Below the pieces are notes generated by a model that was not told the DNA's origin, did no database searches, and worked only from the letters and a program-made list of their open reading frames with translations. From Deltaproteobacteria bacterium (lineage in GTDB: Bacteria; Desulfobacterota; Syntrophobacteria; BM002), in assembly GCA_019309045.1 (NCBI GenBank), contig JAFDGZ010000004.1, positions 5,178 to 69,177 on the forward strand: a stretch of DNA of 64,000 nt, read 5' to 3'. The position numbers and the translations under genes are program-made. Below are positions 962 to 57,964 of the stretch, one piece after another (the first letter of the stretch is position 1; every line of letters starts with the position of its first letter).

Positions 962-2755
962 ATGAAGTTCGAGACTATTAGAAAAAAGCGGCTAGGAATG
1001 TACCTTTCTCCCTGGGTAATTGTGGGAGGAGTGGTCATTTTGCTCACGGTGGTCATGACGCTGGCGGTGAGAAATATTAATCGGGAAAAGCGCTACATGT
1101 CTCAGCTCCTTCTGGAAAAAGGCGCCGCCCTGATCAGGTCGTTTGAGGCTGGAGCCCGCACCGGCATGATGGCCATGATGTGGGGTGGTGATCAGGTCCA
1201 GAATCTGTTGGAAGAGACGGCGCGGCAGCCAGACATTGTCTACCTGGCAGTGACTGATGAAACGGGCTTGGTCCTGGCCCACAGTGACACGAGTCAGATT
1301 GGTCGCAGACTCATGGAGCCGAGCACACTTGCAGCACTGCATCCCAGTGCAGTTGTCCAGTGGAGGCTGACTGATTCGCAGAGAGTCCGTCGGGTTTTCG
1401 AAGTTTACAAGTATTTCCAACCGCTGGCAAATTGCGGCCATGAGAGGCTGGGAAGACGGCGCGGCCACATGGCTGCTCCAATGATGAAGCGCTGGAAAAA
1501 CGACTGGTGTTTCCCGGATGAAAAGAGCAAGCAACAGAGGATTATATTCGCTGCCTTTGATACCACACCATTCTTGGAGGCGCGCAGGGAGGACATACGC
1601 AATACCATGGTGCTGTCAGCGGTGCTGCTGCTCCTCGGTTTTGCCGGGTTCGTCTCCCTTTTCATAGCCGAGAGTTACCGGGCCACGAACCGGGCGTTGC
1701 AGGACACCAGCGCCTTTGCCAACGAGGTGGTGCGGAGTCTTCCCGTGGGTCTGATCGCTACGGACAGAGACGGCCGCATTGCCTTTCTCAATGAAGCGGC
1801 TGAAAAAATAACTGGCTCGACCCTGGCTCAAGTCCGAGGCAAACCTCCTGAAGAGGTATTTTCCAAACAGTGGTGCAACTTCAAGGAGATCCTGGAAAGT
1901 GGCCAGGCAGTACTCGAACGGGAGATGGAGTGCTTTTTCTCAGCAGAAGCACCTATGCCTCTGAGTGTGAGTGGCTCGAAGATCATCAATGAAGAAGGAG
2001 AATTTGTCGGTAATATCCTCATACTTAGAGACCTGGGCGAAGTCAAGAGGCTGCAGGCTGAAATTCGCCGCCAGGAAAAGCTGGCCGCCCTCGGTAATCT
2101 GGCAGCAGGCGTGGCCCACGAGATCAGGAACCCTCTCAGTTCCATCAAGGGACTGGCTGGCTATTTTGGGGACAAATTCGATGAGGGCAGCGAAGACAGA
2201 GAGGCAGCTGCAGTAATGGTACGTGAGGTTGACCGTTTGAACAGGGTAATCAGTGAGTTGCTGGAATTTGCCAGGCCTTCGGAGCTGCGACTCCGAGAGA
2301 TGAATGTCAATGAGGTCTTGCAGCACTCGGTGCGGCTCATTCAAGAAGATGCCAGGGCCAGTGGTGTGAAGCTGGAGGTGGCCTTGGCAGACGACCTGCC
2401 GTCGGTGTTCATTGATCCTGATCGTTTTTCTCAGGCCATACTCAATCTCTGCCTCAATGGGATTCAGGCCATGACCGAGGGGGGAATTCTGTCAATAAGC
2501 AGTATGCTGACCCGCAATCGCCGAGTGGCCGTTGAGATTGCTGATACTGGGCCTGGCATTCGAACTGAGGAGCTCTCAAAGGTGTTCGATCCGTATTTCA
2601 CCACAAAAACCAAAGGAACAGGATTGGGTCTGGCCATTGTGCACAAGATAGTGGAGGCTCACGGCGGAAACATCAAAGTAAAGAGCGAAGTTGGCAAAGG
2701 TGCGCTCTTTACCATTTATCTGCCTGCCTCGGCTGGTGGAATCGAGAGGAATTGA
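962..2755 (+). CDS. Sensor histidine kinase, ZraS-like: two TM helices flanking a periplasmic sensor domain, then PAS, HisKA and HATPase domains
   Basis: The N-terminal TM helix, a ~170-aa periplasmic segment and a second TM helix are visible. The H-box is AAGVAHEIRNPL. G-boxes DTGPGI and GTGLGLAIV are present. The stop overlaps the downstream regulator start (ATGA). Confidence 0.85.
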   Translation: MKFETIRKKRLGMYLSPWVIVGGVVILLTVVMTLAVRNINREKRYMSQLLLEKGAALIRSFEAGARTGMMAMMWGGDQVQNLLEETARQPDIVYLAVTDETGLVLAHSDTSQIGRRLMEPSTLAALHPSAVVQWRLTDSQRVRRVFEVYKYFQPLANCGHERLGRRRGHMAAPMMKRWKNDWCFPDEKSKQQRIIFAAFDTTPFLEARREDIRNTMVLSAVLLLLGFAGFVSLFIAESYRATNRALQDTSAFANEVVRSLPVGLIATDRDGRIAFLNEAAEKITGSTLAQVRGKPPEEVFSKQWCNFKEILESGQAVLEREMECFFSAEAPMPLSVSGSKIINEEGEFVGNILILRDLGEVKRLQAEIRRQEKLAALGNLAAGVAHEIRNPLSSIKGLAGYFGDKFDEGSEDREAAAVMVREVDRLNRVISELLEFARPSELRLREMNVNEVLQHSVRLIQEDARASGVKLEVALADDLPSVFIDPDRFSQAILNLCLNGIQAMTEGGILSISSMLTRNRRVAVEIADTGPGIRTEELSKVFDPYFTTKTKGTGLGLAIVHKIVEAHGGNIKVKSEVGKGALFTIYLPASAGGIERN

Positions 2756-4149
2756 CTATGAACCAGAAAGCCCAGGCACGAATTCTGGTGGTTGATGACG
2801 ATGCCTCGCATCTCACTGTGCTGCTTACTATCATCAAGAACTGGGGCTATCGGGTAGAAGGAGCAGATGACGGCAGTATGGCAGTGGACAAGGTCAAGGA
2901 TAATCCCTTCGACCTGGTGCTGATGGACGTTCGCATGGCGGAGATGAGCGGCATCGAAGCCTTGAAACTGATCAAGGAATATAATCCGGCAATTCCCATT
3001 CTCATCATGACGGCCTACTCCTCTATAGAGTCGGCGGTGGAGGCGCTCAAGGCAGGAGCCTACGATTATCTTACCAAGCCCCTGGACTTCGACGTCCTGA
3101 AATTGACTCTGGAGAGGGCCCTGGAGCACACCAACCTCAAGGAGGAAATTCGCACCCTTAAACAAAGGCTTGTTTCCGATTTCAAACTGGACAAGATTAT
3201 TGGCAAGAGCCCGGCAATGAAGGAGCTGCTGGAGATGGTGGCCATGGTGGCTCCATCCGAGGCCACTGCTCTGATTACCGGCGAAAGCGGCACCGGCAAG
3301 GAGCTGATCGCCAGGTCCATTCACTACAACAGTGGCCGCCAGGAGGGTCCGTTGGTTATCGTCAATTGTGCTGCTCTGACTGAAACTCTGCTGGAGTCGG
3401 AACTGTTCGGCCACGAGAAGGGAGCCTTTACCGGTGCAGACAGAAGACGGGAAGGACGGTTCATGCAAGCCAACAAGGGGACCATCTTTCTCGATGAGAT
3501 CGGCGAGATGTCGCCAATGATGCAGGCCAAACTGCTCCGGGTCATCCAGGAAAGGGAGATACAACGGGTGGGCAGTGATGAGAGTCTCAAGGTTGATGTT
3601 CGCATCCTGGCAGCCACCAACAGGGACCTTCAGGATGAGGTCTCGGCAGGCAGGTTCAGAGAAGATCTCTATTACCGTTTGAATGTGGTTACTTTGCGAG
3701 TGCCGCCATTGAGGGAGCGACGCGAGGATATCCCTCTGCTGGCGCAACACTTTCTGGAAATATACAGCAAGAAAAACAGGAGACAGCTCAAAGGCTTCAG
3801 CCCTGTGGCTATGGACATGCTCCTCAAGTACGAGTGGCCTGGTAATGTGCGCGAACTGGAGAATGCAGTGGAAAGGGCAGTCATACTCTCCCTCGGCGAC
3901 TACATAACCGAAACAGAATTGCCTATGAGTATAACCAAGGGGTACTCGCCCGTCCAAATGGTCCCCTTGATGGCCCAGGGAGCAACTTCTGGGCGCTCAC
4001 TCGAGGAGATCGAAAAAGAGGCAGTGTTGGCCACTCTCGAGGCAGTGGGCGGCAACAAGAGCGAGGCGGCCAGAAGGCTGGGGATTACCAGAAAGACGCT
4101 GCACAAGAAGCTGCAGAAGTATGAAAAAGAAAGAAAGCCAAGAGGCTGA
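2752..4149 (+). CDS. Sigma-54-dependent response regulator (NtrC/ZraR/AtoC family): receiver domain, AAA+ sigma-54 activator domain, Fis-type HTH
   Basis: Receiver-domain start ILVVDDD with the conserved Asp. Walker A is GESGTGKE. The GAFTGA sigma-54 contact motif is present. A C-terminal HTH (GNKSEAARRLGITRKTLHKKL) closes the protein. Confidence 0.9.
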   Translation: MTMNQKAQARILVVDDDASHLTVLLTIIKNWGYRVEGADDGSMAVDKVKDNPFDLVLMDVRMAEMSGIEALKLIKEYNPAIPILIMTAYSSIESAVEALKAGAYDYLTKPLDFDVLKLTLERALEHTNLKEEIRTLKQRLVSDFKLDKIIGKSPAMKELLEMVAMVAPSEATALITGESGTGKELIARSIHYNSGRQEGPLVIVNCAALTETLLESELFGHEKGAFTGADRRREGRFMQANKGTIFLDEIGEMSPMMQAKLLRVIQEREIQRVGSDESLKVDVRILAATNRDLQDEVSAGRFREDLYYRLNVVTLRVPPLRERREDIPLLAQHFLEIYSKKNRRQLKGFSPVAMDMLLKYEWPGNVRELENAVERAVILSLGDYITETELPMSITKGYSPVQMVPLMAQGATSGRSLEEIEKEAVLATLEAVGGNKSEAARRLGITRKTLHKKLQKYEKERKPRG

Positions 4150-23076: not shown

Positions 23077-23245
23077 AGCAGATCAGACAGCAGTCGTCAA
23101 ACTTGATTGTCTACCAGAGGAACAAGGTGGCAGACTCATTGGATCCTCTGCTCGACAAGGCGAGATTTTGGCCCAGTCGTGATCACGCTTTGCCACTCTT
23201 AACATATTGTTGGGGATTGTTCCGAATCAGAGAAAGGAGATGTGC

Positions 23246-24238
23246 ATGCAGCTGCGACATGCCAGAAGAAAGAGTGTACTGGGACTGTGGTTGGTATGTT
23301 TCGTTTTCCTTGGCAGTGGCTGTACTCTTGTAAATGTGAGTCTTTATCAGCCAGCCAGGCCTCTGGAAGAAAAAGTTGTCGAGGGGAAGGGACCAGGCAA
23401 GATTGTGCTGATTGACGTGAGTGGCATTCTCACCAGTAGGGAGAGTAGCAGCCTCGATCTCTTCCGGGAACGGGCCAGCGTGGTTGCCAGGGTCAAAGAA
23501 GAGCTCGATAAGGCGGCCGAGGATGAGGCGGTGAAAGTTGTGGTGCTCCGCATTCACACTCCTGGGGGCACAGTAACGGCCAGTGACCTGCTGCATCACG
23601 AAATCATAGAGTTCAAGAGAAAAACTAAGGCCAAAGTGGCTGCCCATCTCATGGGCGTGGCCACTTCAGGAGGGTACTACGTGGCTACTGCCGCCGACTA
23701 TATTGCGGCCCAGCCCACGAGCATCACAGGAAGCATAGGAGTGATAGCCCTGCAGTTCAATATCCAGGGATTGCTGGAAAAGATTGGCGTCGAAGGACAG
23801 TCAATAAAGTCAGGTGACAAAAAGGACATGTGGTCGCCGTTTCGTCGCCTGACTCCGGAGGAGAGAAAGATCCTCCAAGACATCATCAATGGCTACAAGG
23901 ACGCCTTTTTGGAGGTTGTCCGCAATGGAAGGCCGAGCATGACTTCGCAGGACCTGGCAACAGTGGCAGACGGCCGGCTAGTCTCGGCAAAGCAGGCTTT
24001 AGAACTCCATCTAGTGGACAAGTTGGCCTATTTGGAAGATACTCTCAACTGGGCTCGCAGTGCAGCAGCTGTGCCTGAGGCAAAAATTGTCCTTTATCGA
24101 CGACCAGGCACCTATGTCGATAACATCTATTCCCTGTCAACCATGGCTGAAGAGTCCTGGCTGCGACGGTTGCAACAGGAAGCGCCCTGGCAACAGCAAG
24201 CAGATACTCCTCTGTTTATGTACGTATGGCTGCCCTAG
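23246..24238 (+). CDS. sppA: Signal peptide peptidase SppA (36K type, S49 family)
   Basis: The S49 motifs are VVLRIHTPGGTVTASD and HLMGVATSGGYYVATAAD...GSIGV. An N-terminal TM anchor is present. Confidence 0.8.
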   Translation: MQLRHARRKSVLGLWLVCFVFLGSGCTLVNVSLYQPARPLEEKVVEGKGPGKIVLIDVSGILTSRESSSLDLFRERASVVARVKEELDKAAEDEAVKVVVLRIHTPGGTVTASDLLHHEIIEFKRKTKAKVAAHLMGVATSGGYYVATAADYIAAQPTSITGSIGVIALQFNIQGLLEKIGVEGQSIKSGDKKDMWSPFRRLTPEERKILQDIINGYKDAFLEVVRNGRPSMTSQDLATVADGRLVSAKQALELHLVDKLAYLEDTLNWARSAAAVPEAKIVLYRRPGTYVDNIYSLSTMAEESWLRRLQQEAPWQQQADTPLFMYVWLP

Positions 24239-24562
24239 ACGTGCAAAGACAGACAGGCTGCAGCAATGGCAAATGAACCGTGGTCATGGCGGCCGCCAGC
24301 CCTGAATCTGCAGGGAGTACCTGGCTGGCGCGAGGTACTATCATGTTATTGCCGAGCACTCGGAGGGAAATATTGCCGGGAGAACTACCACTTCTCAAGG
24401 TGGCAGAACACGCCGACCAAGTCCTTCGATTCAGAAGTTCAATGACGAACTTATTCACTCAGTTAGTGCTGAGTGAGCAATTGCCTTGAGGTAAATCAGC
24501 AGCATACGTCACTGTGTTTGCGAATCGAAGCACTGAGCCAACTCCCGAGAAAGGAGTCGAAT

Positions 24563-25543
24563 ATGACCTTGCCTCATTTCGGTATAGAGGATTGTCGTAG
24601 TCTGGCAGAGTCATACGTCAAACCTTATCATGAGAATTATTTTGCCATGTACAGCAGTGTGCTGGGTGGGGTGGTTACTCATCCCTTTCTCATGACGGTT
24701 CCCATGGATGATCATATTGTCCATCGCGGCGACGGTGTTTTTGAAGTGTTCAAGTGCGTGGATGGTAAGTTGTACAATCTCCACCGTCACCTGGAGCGTC
24801 TTGAGCGCTCTGCCCGGGCTCTCTATTTAAGGCTGCCTGTTGGTCACGACGAGATGGTCAACTTGATTGTGGAGACCATTCGCATAGCAGCGGTGAAGGA
24901 TTGTCTGGTCAGGTTGTTCGTCTCTCGAGGCCCGGGTGGGTTTACTACCAATCCGTACGAGTGTCCACGTTCCCAGCTCTACATAGTAGCTTGCAGTCTA
25001 ATATCCCCTGCCGAAGAGGTGTACAGGACGGGAGTGAGTGCAAAGAGCAGTAGCATCCCCTCAAAGAAATCTTACTTTGCCAATATCAAGAGCTGTAACT
25101 ACCTGCCGAACGTCCTCATGAAAAAGGAGGCCGTGGATATGGGCGTGGATTTCACCATCTCTCTGGACGACAATGGCTTTCTCGGCGAGGGGTCCACGGA
25201 GAATATTGGTGTGGTGAGCAGGGATGGCCGGCTGAGATTTCCCAAATTTTCCCGCATCCTTCAAGGAACCACTGTAACGAGGGTTGCTGAACTGGCACAG
25301 CCTCTGGTAGAGCAGGGTGCTCTGAAGGAGGTGTTGTTTGAGGATATCACCCTCAGTGAGGCATACAGCAGTTCCGAGATGCTTCTTTTTGGCACTACCT
25401 TTGATATTCTTGCCATAACCACCTTTGATGGACACACGGTGGGTACTGGTAAACCAGGGCCGGTGTTTCATCTGCTCAAAGATCGGCTGGACCTGGATAT
25501 TCAGCACAACTCAGCTCTCCACACTGTGGTGTATCCAGAATGA
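24563..25543 (+). CDS. Aminotransferase class IV family protein (branched-chain/D-amino-acid aminotransferase or aminodeoxychorismate-lyase-like)
   Basis: Fold-type IV signatures: RHLERLERSARAL, LVRLFVSRGPGG, and an E...TENIG motif. The start at MTLPHFG has an AAAGGAG RBS. Confidence 0.75.
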   Translation: MTLPHFGIEDCRSLAESYVKPYHENYFAMYSSVLGGVVTHPFLMTVPMDDHIVHRGDGVFEVFKCVDGKLYNLHRHLERLERSARALYLRLPVGHDEMVNLIVETIRIAAVKDCLVRLFVSRGPGGFTTNPYECPRSQLYIVACSLISPAEEVYRTGVSAKSSSIPSKKSYFANIKSCNYLPNVLMKKEAVDMGVDFTISLDDNGFLGEGSTENIGVVSRDGRLRFPKFSRILQGTTVTRVAELAQPLVEQGALKEVLFEDITLSEAYSSSEMLLFGTTFDILAITTFDGHTVGTGKPGPVFHLLKDRLDLDIQHNSALHTVVYPE

Positions 25544-43009: not shown

Positions 43010-44221
43010 ATGGCGGAATACGTGTGGGTAGGAATCAATCGGAAGGGAAAAAAGAAAAAGGGTGAACTGGACGCGGAAAATGAGAATATGGTCCGCCTCA
43101 CCCTCAGACGACAGGGCATCGAACCCAAAAAAATCAAACCCAAGCCGAAAGACATCTTCGCAAACGTCAAGGCCTTTCAGCCCAAAGTGACCGAAAAGGA
43201 TATTGTGGTCATGACGCGGCAATTTGCCACCATGATTGATGCAGGCCTTCCCCTGGTACAGTGTCTTGATATTCTGTACAGTCAGCAGGACAACCGCACC
43301 TTCAAACGCATTCTCAAACAGGTAAAAGAAGATGTGGAAGAAGGCTCGACCTTTGCCGATGCACTCAAGAAGCACCCGCAAGTCTTCGACGAACTCTTTG
43401 TCAACCTGGTGGCAGCAGGGGAGGTAGGCGGCATCCTAGATATCATTCTCAATCGCCTGGCGAATTACATTGAGAAGGCGGCGAAGCTCAAGAAGAAAGT
43501 CAAGAGCGCCATGACCTATCCTATTGTGGTCACGGCAATTGCCGTCCTGGTGGTGGCAGTAATCCTGGTGTTTGTAATCCCGGTGTTTCAGACCATGTTT
43601 GCAGATTTTGGCCGCGCTCTGCCGCTTCCTACCCAGATCGTGGTAAACTTGAGCAATTTTGTCAAAGGTAATATTCTTTATATGATTGTGGGGCTGGCTA
43701 TTCTGGTATTTGCTTTCAGAAGGTTCTATCGTACTGAAAAGGGCAGAGCTCTGGTGGACAGACTCATACTCCGGGTGCCTATTTTTGGCGTGCTCATTCG
43801 CAAGGTGGCGGTGGCCAAGTTTACCCGCACACTGGGAACCATGATCGGCAGTGGGGTGCCTATCCTGGACAGCCTTGAAATTGTGGCGGCCACAGCAGGC
43901 AACCGGACCATTGAGGAGGCAATCAGAGAGACCAGGCAGAGTATCAGCGAGGGGCGTACTATTGCTGAGCCTCTTGCTGACAGTGAAGTATTTCCCTCCA
44001 TGGTGGTGCAGATGATCTCTGTGGGGGAGGCTACGGGAGCTCTTGACACCATGCTGGGTAAGATTGCCGATTTTTATGATGATGAGGTAGATGCTGCTGT
44101 GGAGGCGCTCACCTCCATGTTGGAGCCCTTCATGATGGTGTTTCTCGGCGGCACTATCGGTGCTCTGGTGATATCCATGTATTTGCCGATATTTCAGATG
44201 GCCGGAGCTGTGGGCGGCTAA
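43010..44221 (+). CDS. pilC: Type IV pilus inner-membrane platform protein PilC (GspF family)
   Basis: Two T2SSF repeats with three TM segments. Confidence 0.85.
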   Translation: MAEYVWVGINRKGKKKKGELDAENENMVRLTLRRQGIEPKKIKPKPKDIFANVKAFQPKVTEKDIVVMTRQFATMIDAGLPLVQCLDILYSQQDNRTFKRILKQVKEDVEEGSTFADALKKHPQVFDELFVNLVAAGEVGGILDIILNRLANYIEKAAKLKKKVKSAMTYPIVVTAIAVLVVAVILVFVIPVFQTMFADFGRALPLPTQIVVNLSNFVKGNILYMIVGLAILVFAFRRFYRTEKGRALVDRLILRVPIFGVLIRKVAVAKFTRTLGTMIGSGVPILDSLEIVAATAGNRTIEEAIRETRQSISEGRTIAEPLADSEVFPSMVVQMISVGEATGALDTMLGKIADFYDDEVDAAVEALTSMLEPFMMVFLGGTIGALVISMYLPIFQMAGAVGG

Positions 44222-44346
44222 GTACTACGATTCGCAAATACAGTGACGTATTCTGCTAATTTATCTCGAAGCAATTGCTCACCCAGCACTAGGTCCTGAG
44301 GAAATAAGTTCGTCATTGAACTTATGAATCGAAGGACTAAGCGAAG

Positions 44347-46098
44347 ATGTCTGTGAATGAAGATCCTGTCAAGGGTGCTACAGCTGAGCTCTTGAGGAAA
44401 CTCAAGAGGCTGATGTTCCTCAGGGTGCTCTTTGCCACCTTTCTGCTCGCAGTTACGGCAGTAGTCCAGGCAAAGGCCTACCAGTTCTTTATCAATGCCT
44501 CACCGATCTCCCTCTACACAGTGGCTGTGCTGATCTATTTTGCCACTGGCTGCTACGTCCTGCTCTTGAGACGGTTGCACAGGGCAAACAGGGTAAAACT
44601 GCTGGCCTACATCCAGCTCGTCCTGGATGTGGTCTTCGTCACTGCCCTCATTTATGTCACCGGCGGCATCGAAAGTATTTTTTCCTTCATGTACATCCTG
44701 GTAATAATAAATGCTGCCATCATGCTGTATCGTCGAGGAGGACTGTTCATTGCTTCAGCTAGCAGCATTTTCTATGGCGTGCTTCTCGATATGCAGTATT
44801 TCGGTCTTGCTCATCCCTTCTACACCCGCTCTTCGACTGCCATGCATTACAGTAGTGGCTACTATTTTTACACTGTTCTCATGAATATTATGGCTTTCTA
44901 CGCGGTGGCTTTTTTGAGCAGTTATCTCGCCGAGGAACTTCGCCGCAGCGGCGCAAAGTTGGAAGAGAAGCAGTATGATCTCGATCAACTGGAGTTGCTC
45001 AATCGCAATATAGTGCAGAGCATCAACAGTGGACTGATCACCCTGGATAATGCACTGAGAATAACCTATGTAAATCGGGCTGCTGAAAGCATCTCAGGAT
45101 TCAAGCTGGCAGAGATGCAGGGAAAACACATCAGTGCCATTTTCCCCGAGATAGCTCCCCGGCTGATAGGAGGCAAGCAGTCCAGGGGAGATGGGGCAAG
45201 ACGGCGACCGGAGCGCAACGACTTTAGTTTTACCCGCAAGGATGGCACCACAGTGCATCTGGGTTTCTCTCAGTCAGTACTTTCTGACCCGCGCGGCCAT
45301 GAATTTGGTCTCATTCTTATTTTTCAAGATTTAACTGAAATTCGCCGCATGGAAGAACAGATTCGCCGGATGGACCGTCTCGCTGTAGTGGGCGAGCTCG
45401 CAGCTGGGATTGCCCATGAAATAAAGAACCCCCTGGCATCTCTCAGTGGATCTCTGCAAATGATGAGAGATGAATTGACTCTAGAGGATGAATACCAGCG
45501 TCTCATGGATATAACCTTGCGTGAGGCTGAACGGCTCAATGCCCTGGTCAATGAGTTCCTTCTCTTTTCCAAGCCAGCAAGGAAGGCAGAGGAGTCTGTG
45601 GAGATACACCAGGTGATAAACGATACCCTGGAAATCCTGGGTAACAGCCCTGAACTGCCGAGGCTCGTACGGATCCGCAAGAATTTTGCCGACAATCTCT
45701 GGGTAAATATTGATTCTCAACAGCTAGAACAGGTGATCTGGAACCTGATGCTGAATGCCCTGCACAGCATGAATGACGGTGGGGAAATATGCATATCTAC
45801 CGGAATCCATTATGAAAATGGTACAGGAAACAGCAGGAAGAACTTTGCCAAGATCTCCATTTTGGACACTGGTCCAGGGATTCCCCAGGAAATTCAGGAC
45901 AAGATATTCAATCCCTTCTTTACTACCAAAGAAAGCGGTACCGGGCTTGGTTTGACAATTGTCCACAGAATCATTGAGAATTATGGCGGCAGGATCTTTT
46001 TCAAAAGCGACGGCCGTTCAGGAACCACCTTCACCATTTATCTGCCTCTGGCTAGTACAGATCACTCTCCAGAAAATGGTTCTCTCGAAAGTGAATAG
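44347..46098 (+). CDS. pilS: PilS-like sensor histidine kinase: six-TM N-terminal domain, PAS, HisKA, HATPase
   Basis: A polytopic N-terminus, H-box AAGIAHEIKNPL and G-boxes DTGPGI and GTGLGL. It lies directly after pilB-pilC. No partner regulator gene follows. Confidence 0.7.
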   Translation: MSVNEDPVKGATAELLRKLKRLMFLRVLFATFLLAVTAVVQAKAYQFFINASPISLYTVAVLIYFATGCYVLLLRRLHRANRVKLLAYIQLVLDVVFVTALIYVTGGIESIFSFMYILVIINAAIMLYRRGGLFIASASSIFYGVLLDMQYFGLAHPFYTRSSTAMHYSSGYYFYTVLMNIMAFYAVAFLSSYLAEELRRSGAKLEEKQYDLDQLELLNRNIVQSINSGLITLDNALRITYVNRAAESISGFKLAEMQGKHISAIFPEIAPRLIGGKQSRGDGARRRPERNDFSFTRKDGTTVHLGFSQSVLSDPRGHEFGLILIFQDLTEIRRMEEQIRRMDRLAVVGELAAGIAHEIKNPLASLSGSLQMMRDELTLEDEYQRLMDITLREAERLNALVNEFLLFSKPARKAEESVEIHQVINDTLEILGNSPELPRLVRIRKNFADNLWVNIDSQQLEQVIWNLMLNALHSMNDGGEICISTGIHYENGTGNSRKNFAKISILDTGPGIPQEIQDKIFNPFFTTKESGTGLGLTIVHRIIENYGGRIFFKSDGRSGTTFTIYLPLASTDHSPENGSLESE

Positions 46099-46407
46099 AA
46101 AGTGGCCAGGTCTGGGGCCCGCTGCAGCCCTCTGGTGACAAACAGACAACCTGTCAACATAACTTGAAAATATGAAATGTCTCCCCTCTGTTAGAGCTTG
46201 ACTCCTGCCGGCAAATCGTTTATCGTAACGCCCCTTGAGATACATGCCACAACCCAGTGAGAGGAGGAGCCACCGCTACTGCCCAGATGGAGTGTTTGGC
46301 AGCAGATGTATGTGCTGTTATGTTGCCGAATATACAGCGGCCATTTTTTGCAGGAGTCGCCTTGCAGCCAGTGGGTTCAGCAGTGAAGGGCTCGCCTCAA
46401 AGGATTC

Positions 46408-47901
46408 ATGAAAATGGCCACAGATGAATTGAGCCAACTGCTGAGACAACGCCGGCAGAAAGCGGAGAGACTCAGGCAGGCAGGGGTTGACATCTACTGT
46501 AACGACTTTGCTGTCCAGGATAGATTTGCCAACATCAAGGCTAGCTACCAGGATTTAGACGACGATAAGTTGGCACAACAGAGGCGGGTATTTGTTTGCG
46601 CCGGCCGCATCATGGCGATACGCTCCTTTGGACGAGCATCATTCGTGACTCTACAGGATGCCACCGGCAGGCTGCAAATCTACGTCAAAAAAGAGGAGGT
46701 GGGCCAGGACAGTTATGGCCTCTTCCGAAAGTTTGACATAGGTGATCTGGTTGGCGTCAAAGGAACCCTGTTTCGCACCCGGACAGGTGAATTGACCCTG
46801 CTCTGCCAGGAAATTCGTTTACTGACCAAGAGCCTCAGGCCGCTGCCAGAAAAATACCATGGCTTTCGAGATGTGGAGGCAAGGTATCGGCAGCGCTATG
46901 TGGACCTCATTGTCAACGAAGAGGTGCGCCAACTGTTTGTCAGGCGAGCGGTTATCATTGAGAAGCTCCGGGAATTCCTTCAGACCAGAGGCTTTTTGGA
47001 AGTCGAGACGCCCATGATGCAGCCCATTCCCGGAGGTGCTACTGCCAAACCGTTTACCACATTCCATAATGCCCTGGGCATCGAACTCTATCTGCGGGTT
47101 GCTCCTGAACTCTATCTCAAGAGGTTGCTGGTGGGAGGATTCGAGAAGGTATTCGAATTGAATCGAAACTTTCGCAACGAAGGCATCTCCTTTGAACACA
47201 ACCCCGAGTTCACCATGCTGGAGTTTTATCAGGCATATGCCACCTATGAGGATTTGATGCGCTTGAGTGAAGAAATGTTTTGCTTCCTCGCTTCGCAGCT
47301 CAACGGGGATCTCCGCTTTTCCTATCAGGGAATGGACATTGATCTCACCCCACCCTGGCGAAAACTGCCCCTGTACGAAGCGCTCGTCGATATTGGTGGT
47401 CTGGGCCGAGATGAGATCGAAGACAGCAGCAAGCTCATGGCCCGGGCAGAGAGTCTGGGTATTGCCACTGCAAAACAAGGACCGGCCAAAATCATAACCA
47501 AACTCTTTGATGTACTGGTTGAGCCCAAGTTGATACAACCCACTTTCATCACTCATTATCCTGTGGAAGTTTCACCTTTGGCGCGGCGGAATGTGGCCGA
47601 TCCTTCTGTGGTGGACAGATTTGAGCTGTTCATAGGCGGCCGAGAAATTGCCAATGGTTTTTCCGAGCTGAATGACCCTGATGATCAAAGGACGAGATTC
47701 ATGCAGCAGGTGGCCGAGCGGGAAGCAGGCGACGAAGAAGCTCATTTCATGGATGAGGACTACCTCAGGGCCCTGGAGTATGGCATGCCTCCTGCGGCTG
47801 GTGAAGGAGTCGGCATCGATAGGGTGATAATGCTTTTCACCAACAGAGCTTCCATAAGGGAGGTAATTCTGTTCCCGCACATGAGGCCCGAGCGCAGCTG
47901 A
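46408..47901 (+). CDS. lysS: Lysine--tRNA ligase (class II)
   Basis: Class II motifs FRNEGIS... and GGREIANGFSELNDP...GIDRV, with an OB-fold anticodon-binding N-terminus. Confidence 0.95.
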   Translation: MKMATDELSQLLRQRRQKAERLRQAGVDIYCNDFAVQDRFANIKASYQDLDDDKLAQQRRVFVCAGRIMAIRSFGRASFVTLQDATGRLQIYVKKEEVGQDSYGLFRKFDIGDLVGVKGTLFRTRTGELTLLCQEIRLLTKSLRPLPEKYHGFRDVEARYRQRYVDLIVNEEVRQLFVRRAVIIEKLREFLQTRGFLEVETPMMQPIPGGATAKPFTTFHNALGIELYLRVAPELYLKRLLVGGFEKVFELNRNFRNEGISFEHNPEFTMLEFYQAYATYEDLMRLSEEMFCFLASQLNGDLRFSYQGMDIDLTPPWRKLPLYEALVDIGGLGRDEIEDSSKLMARAESLGIATAKQGPAKIITKLFDVLVEPKLIQPTFITHYPVEVSPLARRNVADPSVVDRFELFIGGREIANGFSELNDPDDQRTRFMQQVAEREAGDEEAHFMDEDYLRALEYGMPPAAGEGVGIDRVIMLFTNRASIREVILFPHMRPERS

Positions 47902-55925: not shown

Positions 55926-56065
55926 TGTCTTCTAAAGCTGTCAACAGTTGGGCCGTTGAGAGGTATAGATTAGATTGCTGCGGAAAGCCCTGCCTTCAAA
56001 GCTGAGTATGTTGACCTGTGAAACTTTGCCGGTCTTTCCCTCGTCGAGTTCTTGGTGGCACTGTG

Positions 56066-57964
56066 AATAGAATAGGACTAATTGCAGGGAGCGGCCAGTT
56101 TCCTCTCCTCTTCGCCCGGGCTGCCAGAAGCGCCAATTATACAGTAATAGCTGTAGCGCTAGAGGGTGAGACCGATGTGCGTTTGCAGGAAGAGGTGGAC
56201 CAGTGTACCTGGGTGAAACTGGGTCAACTGGGTCGCATGATAGAGACCTTGCAGCAGGCGAGGGTCTCTGAAGCTGTGATGGCGGGTTCAGTTGAAAAGA
56301 CCAAGCTTTTCCGGAAAATACGACCGGACTGGAAGGCGCTGAACCTGCTGGCGCGGATGTTTCACAAACAAGATGACGCCCTCCTGCGAGCACTGGCCCA
56401 GGAAATGGAACGGCATGGTATCAAAATTAGAGCCTCCACCATGTTTCTGCCCGATCTCCTCGCTCCCAGGGGCATCCTTGGTCGTCGCACCCCGAACAGA
56501 CGTGAGCGGCGAGATATCGAATTCGGCTGGCATCTGGCCAAAGAGATCGGCAGGTTGGATATAGGTCAGTGTATAGTTGTCAAAGACCAGGCTGTGCTGG
56601 CTGTTGAGGCAATTGAGGGAACCGACCAGACCATACTCAGGGGAGGCAGACTAGGTCAAGAAGGCTCTGTGGTCATCAAGGTCAGCAAACCAGGACAGGA
56701 TCTGCGTTTTGATGTCCCTGCAGTGGGTTTGCAGACCATAGTCAATATGGAGCGGGCAGGGGCAAAGGTTCTGGTCCTCGAAGCTGGTAAGACATTGATG
56801 TTTGACCGGCAGGAAATGATTCATGCTGCTGACCGGGCAGGCATTGCCATTGTCTGCAAAGAGGAACAGGGAGATTTTCTTGAACGGCAATTCCCTGTCG
56901 CTCCTGCGTGTCGGCGAGCGTCCTCCCGAGGAGAAGAACAAGCCGGCAATGGTTTGCCTCCCCGGATTGTTTCAGGAGGGCAGCAAGAGAAGATTAGTGT
57001 GGCTGTGGTGGGAGTGGGCTATCTGGGAAAGTTTCACACTGAAAAATACGCCAGCTTGCCTGACGCGGAGCTGGTTGCTGTGGTGGACATCGACGAGGCC
57101 AGAGCTTGCCAGGTAGCGAAGAAATTCTCTTGTCAGCCTTATTTTTCTCACCAGGACATCATTGGTAGGGTTGAAGCGGTAAGTGTGGTGACTCCCACGA
57201 AAGAGCACTATCATATTGCCCGGGATTTGCTGGAAGCTGGCATCCATGTGCTCGTGGAAAAACCCATGACAGTGACTCTGCCGGAGGCAGACATTCTCAT
57301 CGAGTTGGCCAGAGAGAGAGATCTTACTTTGCAAGTAGGACACCTGGAACGGTTCAACCCTGCAGTGGTGACCGCGCGGGAGCACGTGCAGCAGCCGTTG
57401 TTTGTGGAATCGCATCGCCTGGCTTCTTTTACTGAACGGGGAACCGAGGTCAACGTCATACTGGATCTTATGATCCATGACATTGACATTATTCTCAGCC
57501 TGCTGTCTTCTTCTTTGAAAGACCTGCATGCTGTGGGAGTTAGGGTTCTCACGCGCCATATTGATATTGCCAGCGTACGGCTGGAGTTTACCGACGGCTG
57601 CATTGCCAACCTGACAGCGAGTAGGATATCTGCCAAGAAAATGAGAAAGATAAGAATATTTCAACCGGACAGCTATATATCTCTGGACTATGCTGCCAGG
57701 AAGGTGGAGCTGTTTCGTAAGCTGAACCAGACGGGTTCTGACGGATTGCCGGAGATAGAATACCAACGTCTGCAGGTGGCCGATGTGGATCCCTTGCAGG
57801 AGGAGCTCCGTGCCTTCCTGCACTCCGTACGCAGCGGCGAGCCCCCAGTGGTGAGCGGCAAGGCCGGCAGAGACGCCCTGGAGCTTGCTACCCTGGTGAG
57901 CGATGAAATTCAGCAGAGGACGAAGGAGCTCAGCAGAGTCCTCGGCCTGGCCGGGGAGGGCTAG
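56066..57964 (+). CDS. lpxI: Fusion protein: N-terminal LpxI (UDP-2,3-diacylglucosamine pyrophosphatase, DUF1009) joined by a ~40-aa linker to a C-terminal Gfo/Idh/MocA-family NAD(P)-dependent oxidoreductase (GnnA-like)
   Basis: The LpxI part runs aa 1-280 (VNRIGLIAGSGQFPLL...AIVCKEE). The Rossmann start ISVAVVGVGYLGKFH opens a Gfo/Idh/MocA domain that continues to the end. One continuous frame; no internal stop. Confidence 0.7.
   Translation, partial: NRIGLIAGSGQFPLLFARAARSANYTVIAVALEGETDVRLQEEVDQCTWVKLGQLGRMIETLQQARVSEAVMAGSVEKTKLFRKIRPDWKALNLLARMFHKQDDALLRALAQEMERHGIKIRASTMFLPDLLAPRGILGRRTPNRRERRDIEFGWHLAKEIGRLDIGQCIVVKDQAVLAVEAIEGTDQTILRGGRLGQEGSVVIKVSKPGQDLRFDVPAVGLQTIVNMERAGAKVLVLEAGKTLMFDRQEMIHAADRAGIAIVCKEEQGDFLERQFPVAPACRRASSRGEEQAGNGLPPRIVSGGQQEKISVAVVGVGYLGKFHTEKYASLPDAELVAVVDIDEARACQVAKKFSCQPYFSHQDIIGRVEAVSVVTPTKEHYHIARDLLEAGIHVLVEKPMTVTLPEADILIELARERDLTLQVGHLERFNPAVVTAREHVQQPLFVESHRLASFTERGTEVNVILDLMIHDIDIILSLLSSSLKDLHAVGVRVLTRHIDIASVRLEFTDGCIANLTASRISAKKMRKIRIFQPDSYISLDYAARKVELFRKLNQTGSDGLPEIEYQRLQVADVDPLQEELRAFLHSVRSGEPPVVSGKAGRDALELATLVSDEIQQRTKELSRVLGLAGEG

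Follow-up and report, generated by a model that had tools for sequence, protein, structure and literature searches.

Two inverted copies of a palindrome-rich sequence in a deltaproteobacterial contig as probable members of a low-copy miniature inverted-repeat transposable element family

Why would a bacterial chromosome carry the same palindrome-rich, non-coding sequence twice, in opposite orientations some 20 kb apart, once before a class IV aminotransferase gene and once before pilS, which encodes a sensor kinase? The question is raised by a stretch of 64,000 nucleotides from Deltaproteobacteria bacterium (assembly GCA_019309045.1, contig JAFDGZ010000004.1, positions 5,178 to 69,177), hereafter the window. 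A preliminary description, made from the sequence alone, had proposed a shared operator, a small family of repetitive extragenic palindromic (REP) or MITE (miniature inverted-repeat transposable element) type, or a duplicated cis-regulatory RNA. Our analysis indicates that both loci are very probably old copies of one low-copy MITE family, i.e. inserted non-coding mobile DNA and not a shared regulatory site. The identification is based on the small size of the element, its terminal inverted repeats, the duplication of its target, the lack of coding capacity, its presence or absence at orthologous sites, its AT-richness relative to most hosts and its stable fold. MITEs as such are well known; this family has not been described before.

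Extent, distribution and anatomy of the repeat

The repeat is genuine and far above chance, but was mis-delimited at first reading. Two inverted copies do occur at the positions originally given, the palindromes GCAATTGC, AAGTTC-N6-GAACTT and TCACTCAG-N6-CTGAGTGA are all found in the sequence, and Pfam confirmed the neighbouring genes as named. The 21-mer AATAAGTTCGTCATTGAACTT has exactly two matches in the 64 kb, at 24435-24455 (minus strand) and 44303-44323 (plus strand), and none in 100 shuffles. The reported 3-nt indel also stands; the reported length of 64-67 nt does not, since pairwise alignment and the repeat finder extend the unit to ~120 nt, the latter through two pairs of arms, 24464-24539/44216-44291 (76 nt, 87%) and 24420-24462/44296-44338 (43 nt, 93%). 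What had been taken for a third, partial, forward-oriented copy at 24522-24540 is in fact the other terminal inverted repeat of the first copy (copy A), and its equivalent in the second (copy B) lies at 44221-44233. An nhmmer search of the window with a profile built from all family members detected no third copy.

Other members of the family were sought with an exact 18-mer core in one genome per species and in a metagenome collection. These scans gave 21 genome and 43 metagenome matches, most of them chance matches of the 18-mer alone, and six loci truly carrying the element (L005, L011, L038, L061, L063 and L068). L011 belongs to Deltaproteobacteria bacterium RBG_13_61_14, where the element lies at arsC, and L068 holds the same element; L005 comes from a Methylomirabilales metagenome-assembled genome (MAG; phylum Methylomirabilota), with the element between two cytochrome c genes. 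The remaining three are on metagenome contigs: L061 has the element between mgtC and lysR, L038 is a further contig and L063 retains the 3' half only. Among the family loci, the conserved blocks of the element are at least 90% identical, in hosts from different phyla. A Chryseobacterium locus (L008:3393-3418) shares 26/26 nt with the 3' hairpin region, which exceeds what the 18-mer anchor explains; as this match lies inside an apparent coding sequence (...FVQKFNDELIAHQLM...), it is probably unrelated and was treated as such.

Copy B occupies 44218-44341 on the plus strand and copy A, whose element strand is the minus strand, 24417-24537. The core of copy B measures 114 nt (44223-44336; nhmmer E 8e-40) and that of copy A 111 nt (24422-24532; nhmmer E 2.4e-37), each copy being itself included in the model behind its E-value. 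Both cores are bounded by imperfect terminal inverted repeats with the consensus GTGCTTCGATTCG ... TGAATCGAAGGAC, the element boundaries being also written as GTGCTTCGATTCG...CGAATCGAAGGAC. In copy B these repeats are TACTACGATTC (44223-44233) and GAATCGAAGGA (44326-44336), and in copy A, in plus-strand letters, TCCTTCGATTC (24422-24432) and GAATCGAAGCA (24522-24532). The 11-nt terminal cores match at 10/11 positions in copy A, with an imperfect extension to ~17 nt. The terminal motif AGTSCTWCGATTC is present at both ends of both copies, giving four matches, at 24420 and 44221 and, on the minus strand, at 24534 and 44338, for 0.17 expected.

In the orientation of copy B, the element consists of a left arm CTWAG-TGCTTCGATTCGCAAATA, the block GTGACGTAT, a 24-nt spacer (22 nt in L011), the block TTGCTCACTCAGCACTAAGTCCTGAG, which forms a 5-bp hairpin with a conserved loop, the hairpin ATAAGTTC-GTCATT-GAACTTAT and a right arm TGAATCGAAGGA-CTWAG. 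The two subterminal hairpins, CTCAG-CACTAAGTC-CTGAG and AAGTTC-GTCATT-GAACTT, both have conserved loops. Copy B carries them as CCCAG...CTGAG at 44282-44300 and ATAAGTTC-N6-GAACTTAT at 44304-44325, and copy A has hairpins at 24433-24452 (AGAAGTTC-N6-GAACTT) and at 24455-24476 (TCACTCAG-N6-CTGAGTGA).

The spacer, located between TGACGTAT and TTGCTCA (alignment columns 63-86; 24477-24500 and 44256-44279 in the window), is unrelated in sequence between lineages while its length is kept, and it is common to both window copies. This shared lineage-specific spacer indicates that the window copies arose by transposition within this lineage, and their ~10% divergence together with their degenerate ends indicates that they are not recent. 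A fixed length with a free sequence would seem more than neutral decay alone can account for. The L005 and L061 members reach ~165-171 nt owing to internal insertions, still well under 500 bp. An extra palindromic module beginning GGGCTTCGACTGAG stands at the same internal position in both (L005:3036-3090 and L061:3583-3610), in different hosts; it is longer and nested in L005, and L061 has in addition an 18-nt insertion in the left arm. Partial self-duplication and an optional helix are possible origins of this module.

The GC content of the window copies is 42-45%, against 54% for their host; across the family, element GC ranges from 36 to 50% and host GC from 40 to 70%. There is no conserved coding capacity. 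The sole open reading frame (ORF), of 15-32 aa, lies on the reverse strand, where an ATG 22 nt from the end opens MTNLF(T/P)QDLVL(S/G)EQ...; in copy B it runs through the element for 32 codons (MTNLFPQDLVLGEQLLRDKLAEYVTVFANRST, 44218-44316, minus strand), up to a stop that overlaps that of pilC. We rejected this ORF as a gene because its frame is broken in other copies: stops interrupt it in copy A and L005, and insertions whose length is not a multiple of three shift it in L005 and L061. A vestige of a transposase N-terminus was considered, and the ORF could be a remnant of the transposase termini of a parent element.

Occupied sites, empty sites and the duplicated target

A clear view of an insertion is provided by L011, in which the element interrupts arsC after codon 3 (ATG-C-CTAAG-[112 nt]-CTAAG-CTAAG-AGCG). 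Cutting out 117 nt in silico yields MPKLRALFLCAGNAARSQMAEG..., and the restored ArsC covers Pfam LMWPc profile positions 2-143 and aligns with solved ArsC structures from residue 3. A database search retrieved an intact ortholog of 137 aa, 91% identical and with the same N-terminus, at a locus designated L091, which has the same acyl-CoA dehydrogenase gene upstream of arsC as L011 and an uninterrupted site reading AAAAAGC-ATG-C-CTAAG-CTAAG-AGCG. By this sequence comparison, L011 and L091 are a filled/empty pair with target duplication. Separately, the hairpin after the acyl-CoA dehydrogenase gene at L091:1416-1465 contains a ~21-nt tandem duplication (TTGAAAACCTGTGCCACT) relative to L011.

Copy B fills the junction between pilC (PilC-type T2SSF, 43010-44221) and pilS (44347-46098), both on the plus strand and assigned by Pfam. 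The gene order pilB-pilC-pilS-lysS-FtsX/MacB-type permease gene (PF02687, PF12704) is kept at three loci of relatives, L077, L079 and L080. From the pilC stop to the pilS ATG there are 6 nt in L077 (GGCGGCTAA-TCGATC-ATG) and L080 (AGCGGCTGA-TCAACC-ATG) and 125 nt in the window. In silico removal of 119 nt (44223-44341, comprising the core and a single CTAAG) produces GGCGGCTAA-GCGAAG-ATG, so that the junction reads TAA-GCGAAG-ATG and its spacer regains the 6-nt length of L077 and L080. The left direct repeat of copy B, CTAAG at 44218-44222, is host sequence because it contains the pilC stop codon (TAA, 44219-44221); the identical CTAAG on the right (44337-44341), followed by CGAAG and then the pilS ATG at 44347, is therefore the duplicated target. 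In L079 (2288-2420), the same pilC-pilS junction holds a decayed family member in the opposite orientation, with one terminal repeat missing (nhmmer E 2e-6), which suggests repeated targeting of the CTAA(G) at the stop of pilC.

In the window, pilS is followed by lysS and the FtsX/MacB-type permease gene (44347-47901 for the three genes), in the order kept in L077, L079 and L080, and not by pilR; a PAS histidine kinase and, as its pair, a sigma-54 response regulator are encoded far off, at 962-4149.

Copy A lies between the genes for an S49 peptidase (23207-24238, Pfam) and the class IV aminotransferase (24563-25543, plus strand; PF01063, E 4.7e-43). The orthologous intergenic regions of three relatives (L081, L082 and L083) align with that of the window in two parts, a promoter-like block and the ribosome-binding region, and the element is absent from all three. 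The promoter-like block, TTGCCG-N17-CAAGGT (24373-24401, plus strand), was not called by a consensus promoter scan; it aligns with TTGACG-N17-TATGGT in L082 and L081 and is a putative promoter. Copy A sits between the two aligning parts, 15 nt downstream of the -10-like hexamer, and hence inside the 5' leader. The initial placement of both copies in 5' leaders thus holds for copy A and fails for copy B, whose junction spans 6 nt in relatives; moreover, relative to its downstream gene, copy A is antisense compared with copy B. An exact empty site for copy A was not found among these orthologous regions, whose divergence prevents an alignment across the point of insertion. Its flanking pentamers, CTCAG on the 5' side (24533-24537) and CTTGG on the 3' side (24417-24421), both on the element strand (minus), do not match, the latter being a degenerate counterpart of CTWAG; this fits an old insertion whose direct repeats would have decayed.

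The S49-aminotransferase intergenic region of L082 (2187-2400) contains two short tandem-repeat runs, GGCATAGAG-like and TTTAGRCAT-like, that the window does not have. Proteins labelled Syntrophobacteria or Syntrophobacterales share 65-71% identity with PilS and the aminotransferase of the window. An inversion between the two inverted copies was considered and rejected, the S49-aminotransferase and pilC-pilS adjacencies being the same in relatives. Compared with the window, the complete relative genome CP070692.1 (L080, 969-975 kb; L081, 1006-1013 kb) has the S49-aminotransferase block inverted with respect to the pil block, through a rearrangement between them in which the two element copies play no part.

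Across the family, intact flanks read CTAAG/CTAAG in copy B and L061 and CTTAG/CTTAG in L011 and L038. The middle base of these pentamers is identical on both sides in 4/4 cases and not complementary, as it would be if the pentamers merely extended the terminal palindrome. This leaves TWA (3 bp) or CTWAG (5 bp) as the duplicated sequence, because a duplication of TA alone would need element ends that differ between copies; TTA or TAA can be read as direct repeats in 4/6 copies, and a 5-bp CTWAG duplication fits equally. Since CTAAG and CTTAG contain TAA and TAG, insertions often fall on stop codons: three of the five that could be mapped do so (in pilC, in the cytochrome c gene of L005 and in lysR of L061), the stop being preserved by the duplication each time. 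Flanking direct repeats are thus confirmed against an empty site (L091 versus L011), and orthologous sites with and without the element are known for the pilC-pilS junction (L077, L080), arsC (L091) and the aminotransferase leader (L081-L083).

Nature of the element and competing explanations

Prokaryotic MITEs are shorter than 500 bp, with terminal repeats of 4-30 bp and direct repeats that fade with age; they are AT-rich, give stable stem-loop transcripts and may be as rare as one copy per genome (PMC10969869). We count the element as a MITE because its features match this published description. The REP/MITE-like option of the preliminary description is thereby supported, through the terminal repeats, the flanking direct repeats, the empty sites, the interruption of a gene and the unrelated contexts of the copies. 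A generic high-copy REP does not fit the finding of two copies in 64 kb and of a single copy in each of the two species-representative genomes with a match. REP sequences and bacterial interspersed mosaic elements (BIMEs) are GC-rich palindromes of 20-40 nt, present in tens to hundreds of copies and associated with a RAYT transposase. We rejected this class because the unit measures 115 nt and has a GC content of 42-45%, the 64 kb contain two copies of it and the window lacks a RAYT gene.

In form, the closest known element is ERIC (enterobacterial repetitive intergenic consensus, also IRU), a MITE of ~127 bp. ERIC has a similar size, folds from one end to the other as an imperfect palindrome, occupies transcribed intergenic sites in either orientation, has short TA-containing flanks and includes some copies with extra internal insertions; it can change mRNA stability (PMC3184786; PMC10969869). 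The two share no sequence similarity, and they differ in their setting: ERIC is found at 30-700 copies per genome in Enterobacteriaceae and Vibrionaceae, with TA flanks, whereas the present element has 1-2 copies per genome in uncultured Deltaproteobacteria-labelled and Methylomirabilales MAGs, with CTWAG flanks. Chunjie, from Geobacter uraniireducens, is likewise a delta-proteobacterial, AT-rich and stably folding MITE and, according to the title of its 2008 report, inserted in an operon while leaving the operon structure undisturbed (PMC3184786; PMC10969869). With 178-235 bp, 21-bp terminal repeats, 9-bp direct repeats and 38 full plus 57 partial copies in a single genome, it belongs to another family on every feature that can be measured. 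The Correia elements of Neisseria resemble the element in being small (104-157 bp) and in having terminal repeats (PMC3184786). They differ by an unrelated sequence, a high copy number and confinement to one genus. Correia elements duplicate TA and affect neighbouring transcripts.

In target duplication, the closest known elements are eukaryotic, namely the Tourist-like MITEs and PIF/Harbinger elements, which duplicate 3 bp (TTA/TAA) and, in the case of PIF/Harbinger, have terminal repeats of 14-25 bp and an IS5-like DDE transposase (PMC2213677). The flanks of our element read C-TTA-G or C-TAA-G, and its duplication could equally be 5 bp, unlike the 3 bp of Tourist/PIF. The preferred target of maize PIF is palindromic and has CTTAG at its core, and 3-bp TNA/TWA duplications are recorded in ISfinder for bacterial IS5 subgroups.

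The most coherent account is thus a non-autonomous DNA transposon with a core of ~112-114 bp, which would be moved by a DDE transposase acting in trans, binding the terminal repeats and cutting and pasting the element. The target CTWAG was duplicated at insertion, either over all 5 bp or over the central TWA, and the duplication regenerates the stop codon when an insertion hits one. A duplicated TWA within CTWAG is a hallmark of the IS5 / PIF-Harbinger superfamily; together with the terminal repeats, it makes a transposase of that type the likeliest partner, although this can be proposed only tentatively.

Several points weigh against the identification as a MITE. No transposase was found in the 64 kb of the window, a piece of core chromosome that runs from mfd to lpxK, or beside other family copies. 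Copy number is low, with two copies in the window and, in each of the two species-representative genomes matched, a single exact-core hit. Distant blastn searches of a plasmid collection gave no match, and four pattern scans of viral contigs returned chance anchors only and no family member. Matching direct repeats are missing from copy A and L005, and in L038 two compensatory AT-to-GC changes lengthen the 3' hairpin. The sample itself is biased, every member having been found via one exact 18-mer. Finally, the conservation of the blocks combined with the length-kept spacer would imply selection beyond the terminal repeats, which could act on transposition competence or on another function.

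This last point leads to a variant in which the element is long-lived and spreads horizontally, with a Tourist/PIF-like CTWAG/TWA target habit and with internal blocks selected for a function of their own. That function may be an RNA module buffering polar effects in operons, through the re-supplied stop codon and AAGGA, or alternatively a binding platform for a recombinase. If true, it would explain how blocks stay at least 90% identical between Methylomirabilales and Deltaproteobacteria-labelled MAGs at 1-2 copies per genome; as matters stand, we regard it as unlikely.

A functional structured RNA, either a cis-acting module of the pilS and aminotransferase mRNAs affecting stability, processing or translation, or a mobile small RNA gene, would account for some of the same facts, in that blocks are conserved in distant hosts while the spacer between them varies at constant length. 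The ends of the element pair to close a multi-hairpin fold on either strand that is more stable than those of shuffled sequences (for copy B, -34.3 kcal/mol, z = -2.6; for copy A, -47.8 kcal/mol, z = -4.6, on one strand and -49.5 kcal/mol, z = -4.1, on the other). The compensatory pairs of L038 and changes compatible with G-U pairing in L061 and L005 point the same way, as does a terminator-like hairpin with a T-run that follows the L011 element on its own strand, and MITE transcripts, among them those of ERIC, are known to act on mRNA (PMC3184786). Against this, Rfam 15 has no match at the gathering score in the entire window and nothing relevant around copy B at E <= 10, and the RNAalifold covariation term, at +0.14 kcal/mol, is effectively nil for six sequences, a sample too small and too biased to prove structure absent. 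With an invariant G-U pair excluded, four alignment cells are G-U-compatible on the element strand and four are C-A/A-C mismatches that become G-U on the other strand, hence no strand asymmetry; in L005, the closing stem is broken twice without compensation. Promoter and terminator scans predicted nothing in or beside either window copy, the two copies are oppositely oriented relative to their downstream genes, and the L011 copy destroys the 5' end of a gene, arsC. The cis-regulatory RNA suggested in the preliminary description finds no positive support in the covariation term, the Rfam result or the orientations, and a functional RNA of either sort appears quite unlikely.

The conserved subterminal hairpins with their conserved loops, and the fixed pentanucleotide at the left flank and right end, also call to mind the palindrome-associated elements derived from IS200/IS605, which are mobile as single-stranded DNA via an HUH/Y1 transposase. 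Under such a mechanism, the element would insert 3' of a CTWAG target and carry its own CTWAG at the right end, with no true duplication, and the L091/L011 empty/filled pair would be equally compatible. IS200/IS605 ends are not known to have terminal inverted repeats, whereas those of the present element are clear. In addition, the right pentamer shares its middle base with the left pentamer, which derives from the host, in 4/4 cases; this is expected of a duplication and not of an element-borne cleavage site. No TnpA-like gene was detected near any copy. We consider single-stranded mobility improbable.

Co-regulation of the aminotransferase and pilS genes by a dimeric transcription factor bound to a shared operator would be in keeping with perfect and near-perfect palindromes before two genes. 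It is nevertheless extremely improbable: the conserved unit is the whole 115 nt with its terminal repeats and not a single 20-bp site, it recurs beside unrelated genes in other phyla, the orthologous aminotransferase leaders and pilC-pilS junctions of relatives are devoid of it, and copy B lies within an operon junction that spans 6 nt in those relatives. An immobile chance or local segmental duplication, to which the finding of only two copies in the window would be favourable, has a negligible probability given no match in 100 shuffles and the homologous elements of other organisms, with empty sites in their relatives.

One further candidate, the attC site of integrons, was examined and rejected. 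An attC site has R''/R' core sites (RYYYAAC ... GTTRRRY) at its ends and belongs to a cassette array beside an integrase; the ends of the element read GTGCTTCGATTC ... GAATCGAAGGAC, and the window contains neither an integrase nor such an array.

Predicted consequences for the host genes

Returning to the MITE identification, the two insertions would have altered their host transcripts in distinct ways. Before copy B arrived, pilC and pilS were probably translationally coupled. The insertion would place a 115-nt hairpin in the pilC-pilS transcript, and the AAGGA nearest the pilS ATG lies within the right terminal repeat of the element, where it is predicted to pair with the left arm. The right arm of the element would thus now supply the only Shine-Dalgarno-like AAGGA for pilS. 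Copy A would add the same hairpin (~-48 kcal/mol), in antisense, to the aminotransferase leader.

Elsewhere in the window, the lpxD-fabZ-lpxA-lpxI-lpxB-msbA-kdtA-lpxK cluster contains a gene (56018-57964) for a 648-aa protein in which LpxI, with its N- and C-terminal domains, is joined to a GFO_IDH_MocA-type NAD-binding oxidoreductase domain.

For this organism, the shared sequence is not evidence for the co-regulation of pilS and the aminotransferase gene, and a false lead for annotation is thereby removed. What has changed locally is a pilC-pilS junction split by a 119-nt insertion, with pilS apparently dependent on a ribosome-binding sequence supplied by the element, and an aminotransferase leader that has gained a stable predicted hairpin. 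More broadly, the case advises caution in reading intergenic palindromes as regulatory sites, and a family of this kind in uncultured anaerobes, with its clean filled/empty pair and its tendency to hit stop codons (CTAAG/CTTAG), can serve to mark the movement of mobile elements between distant lineages.

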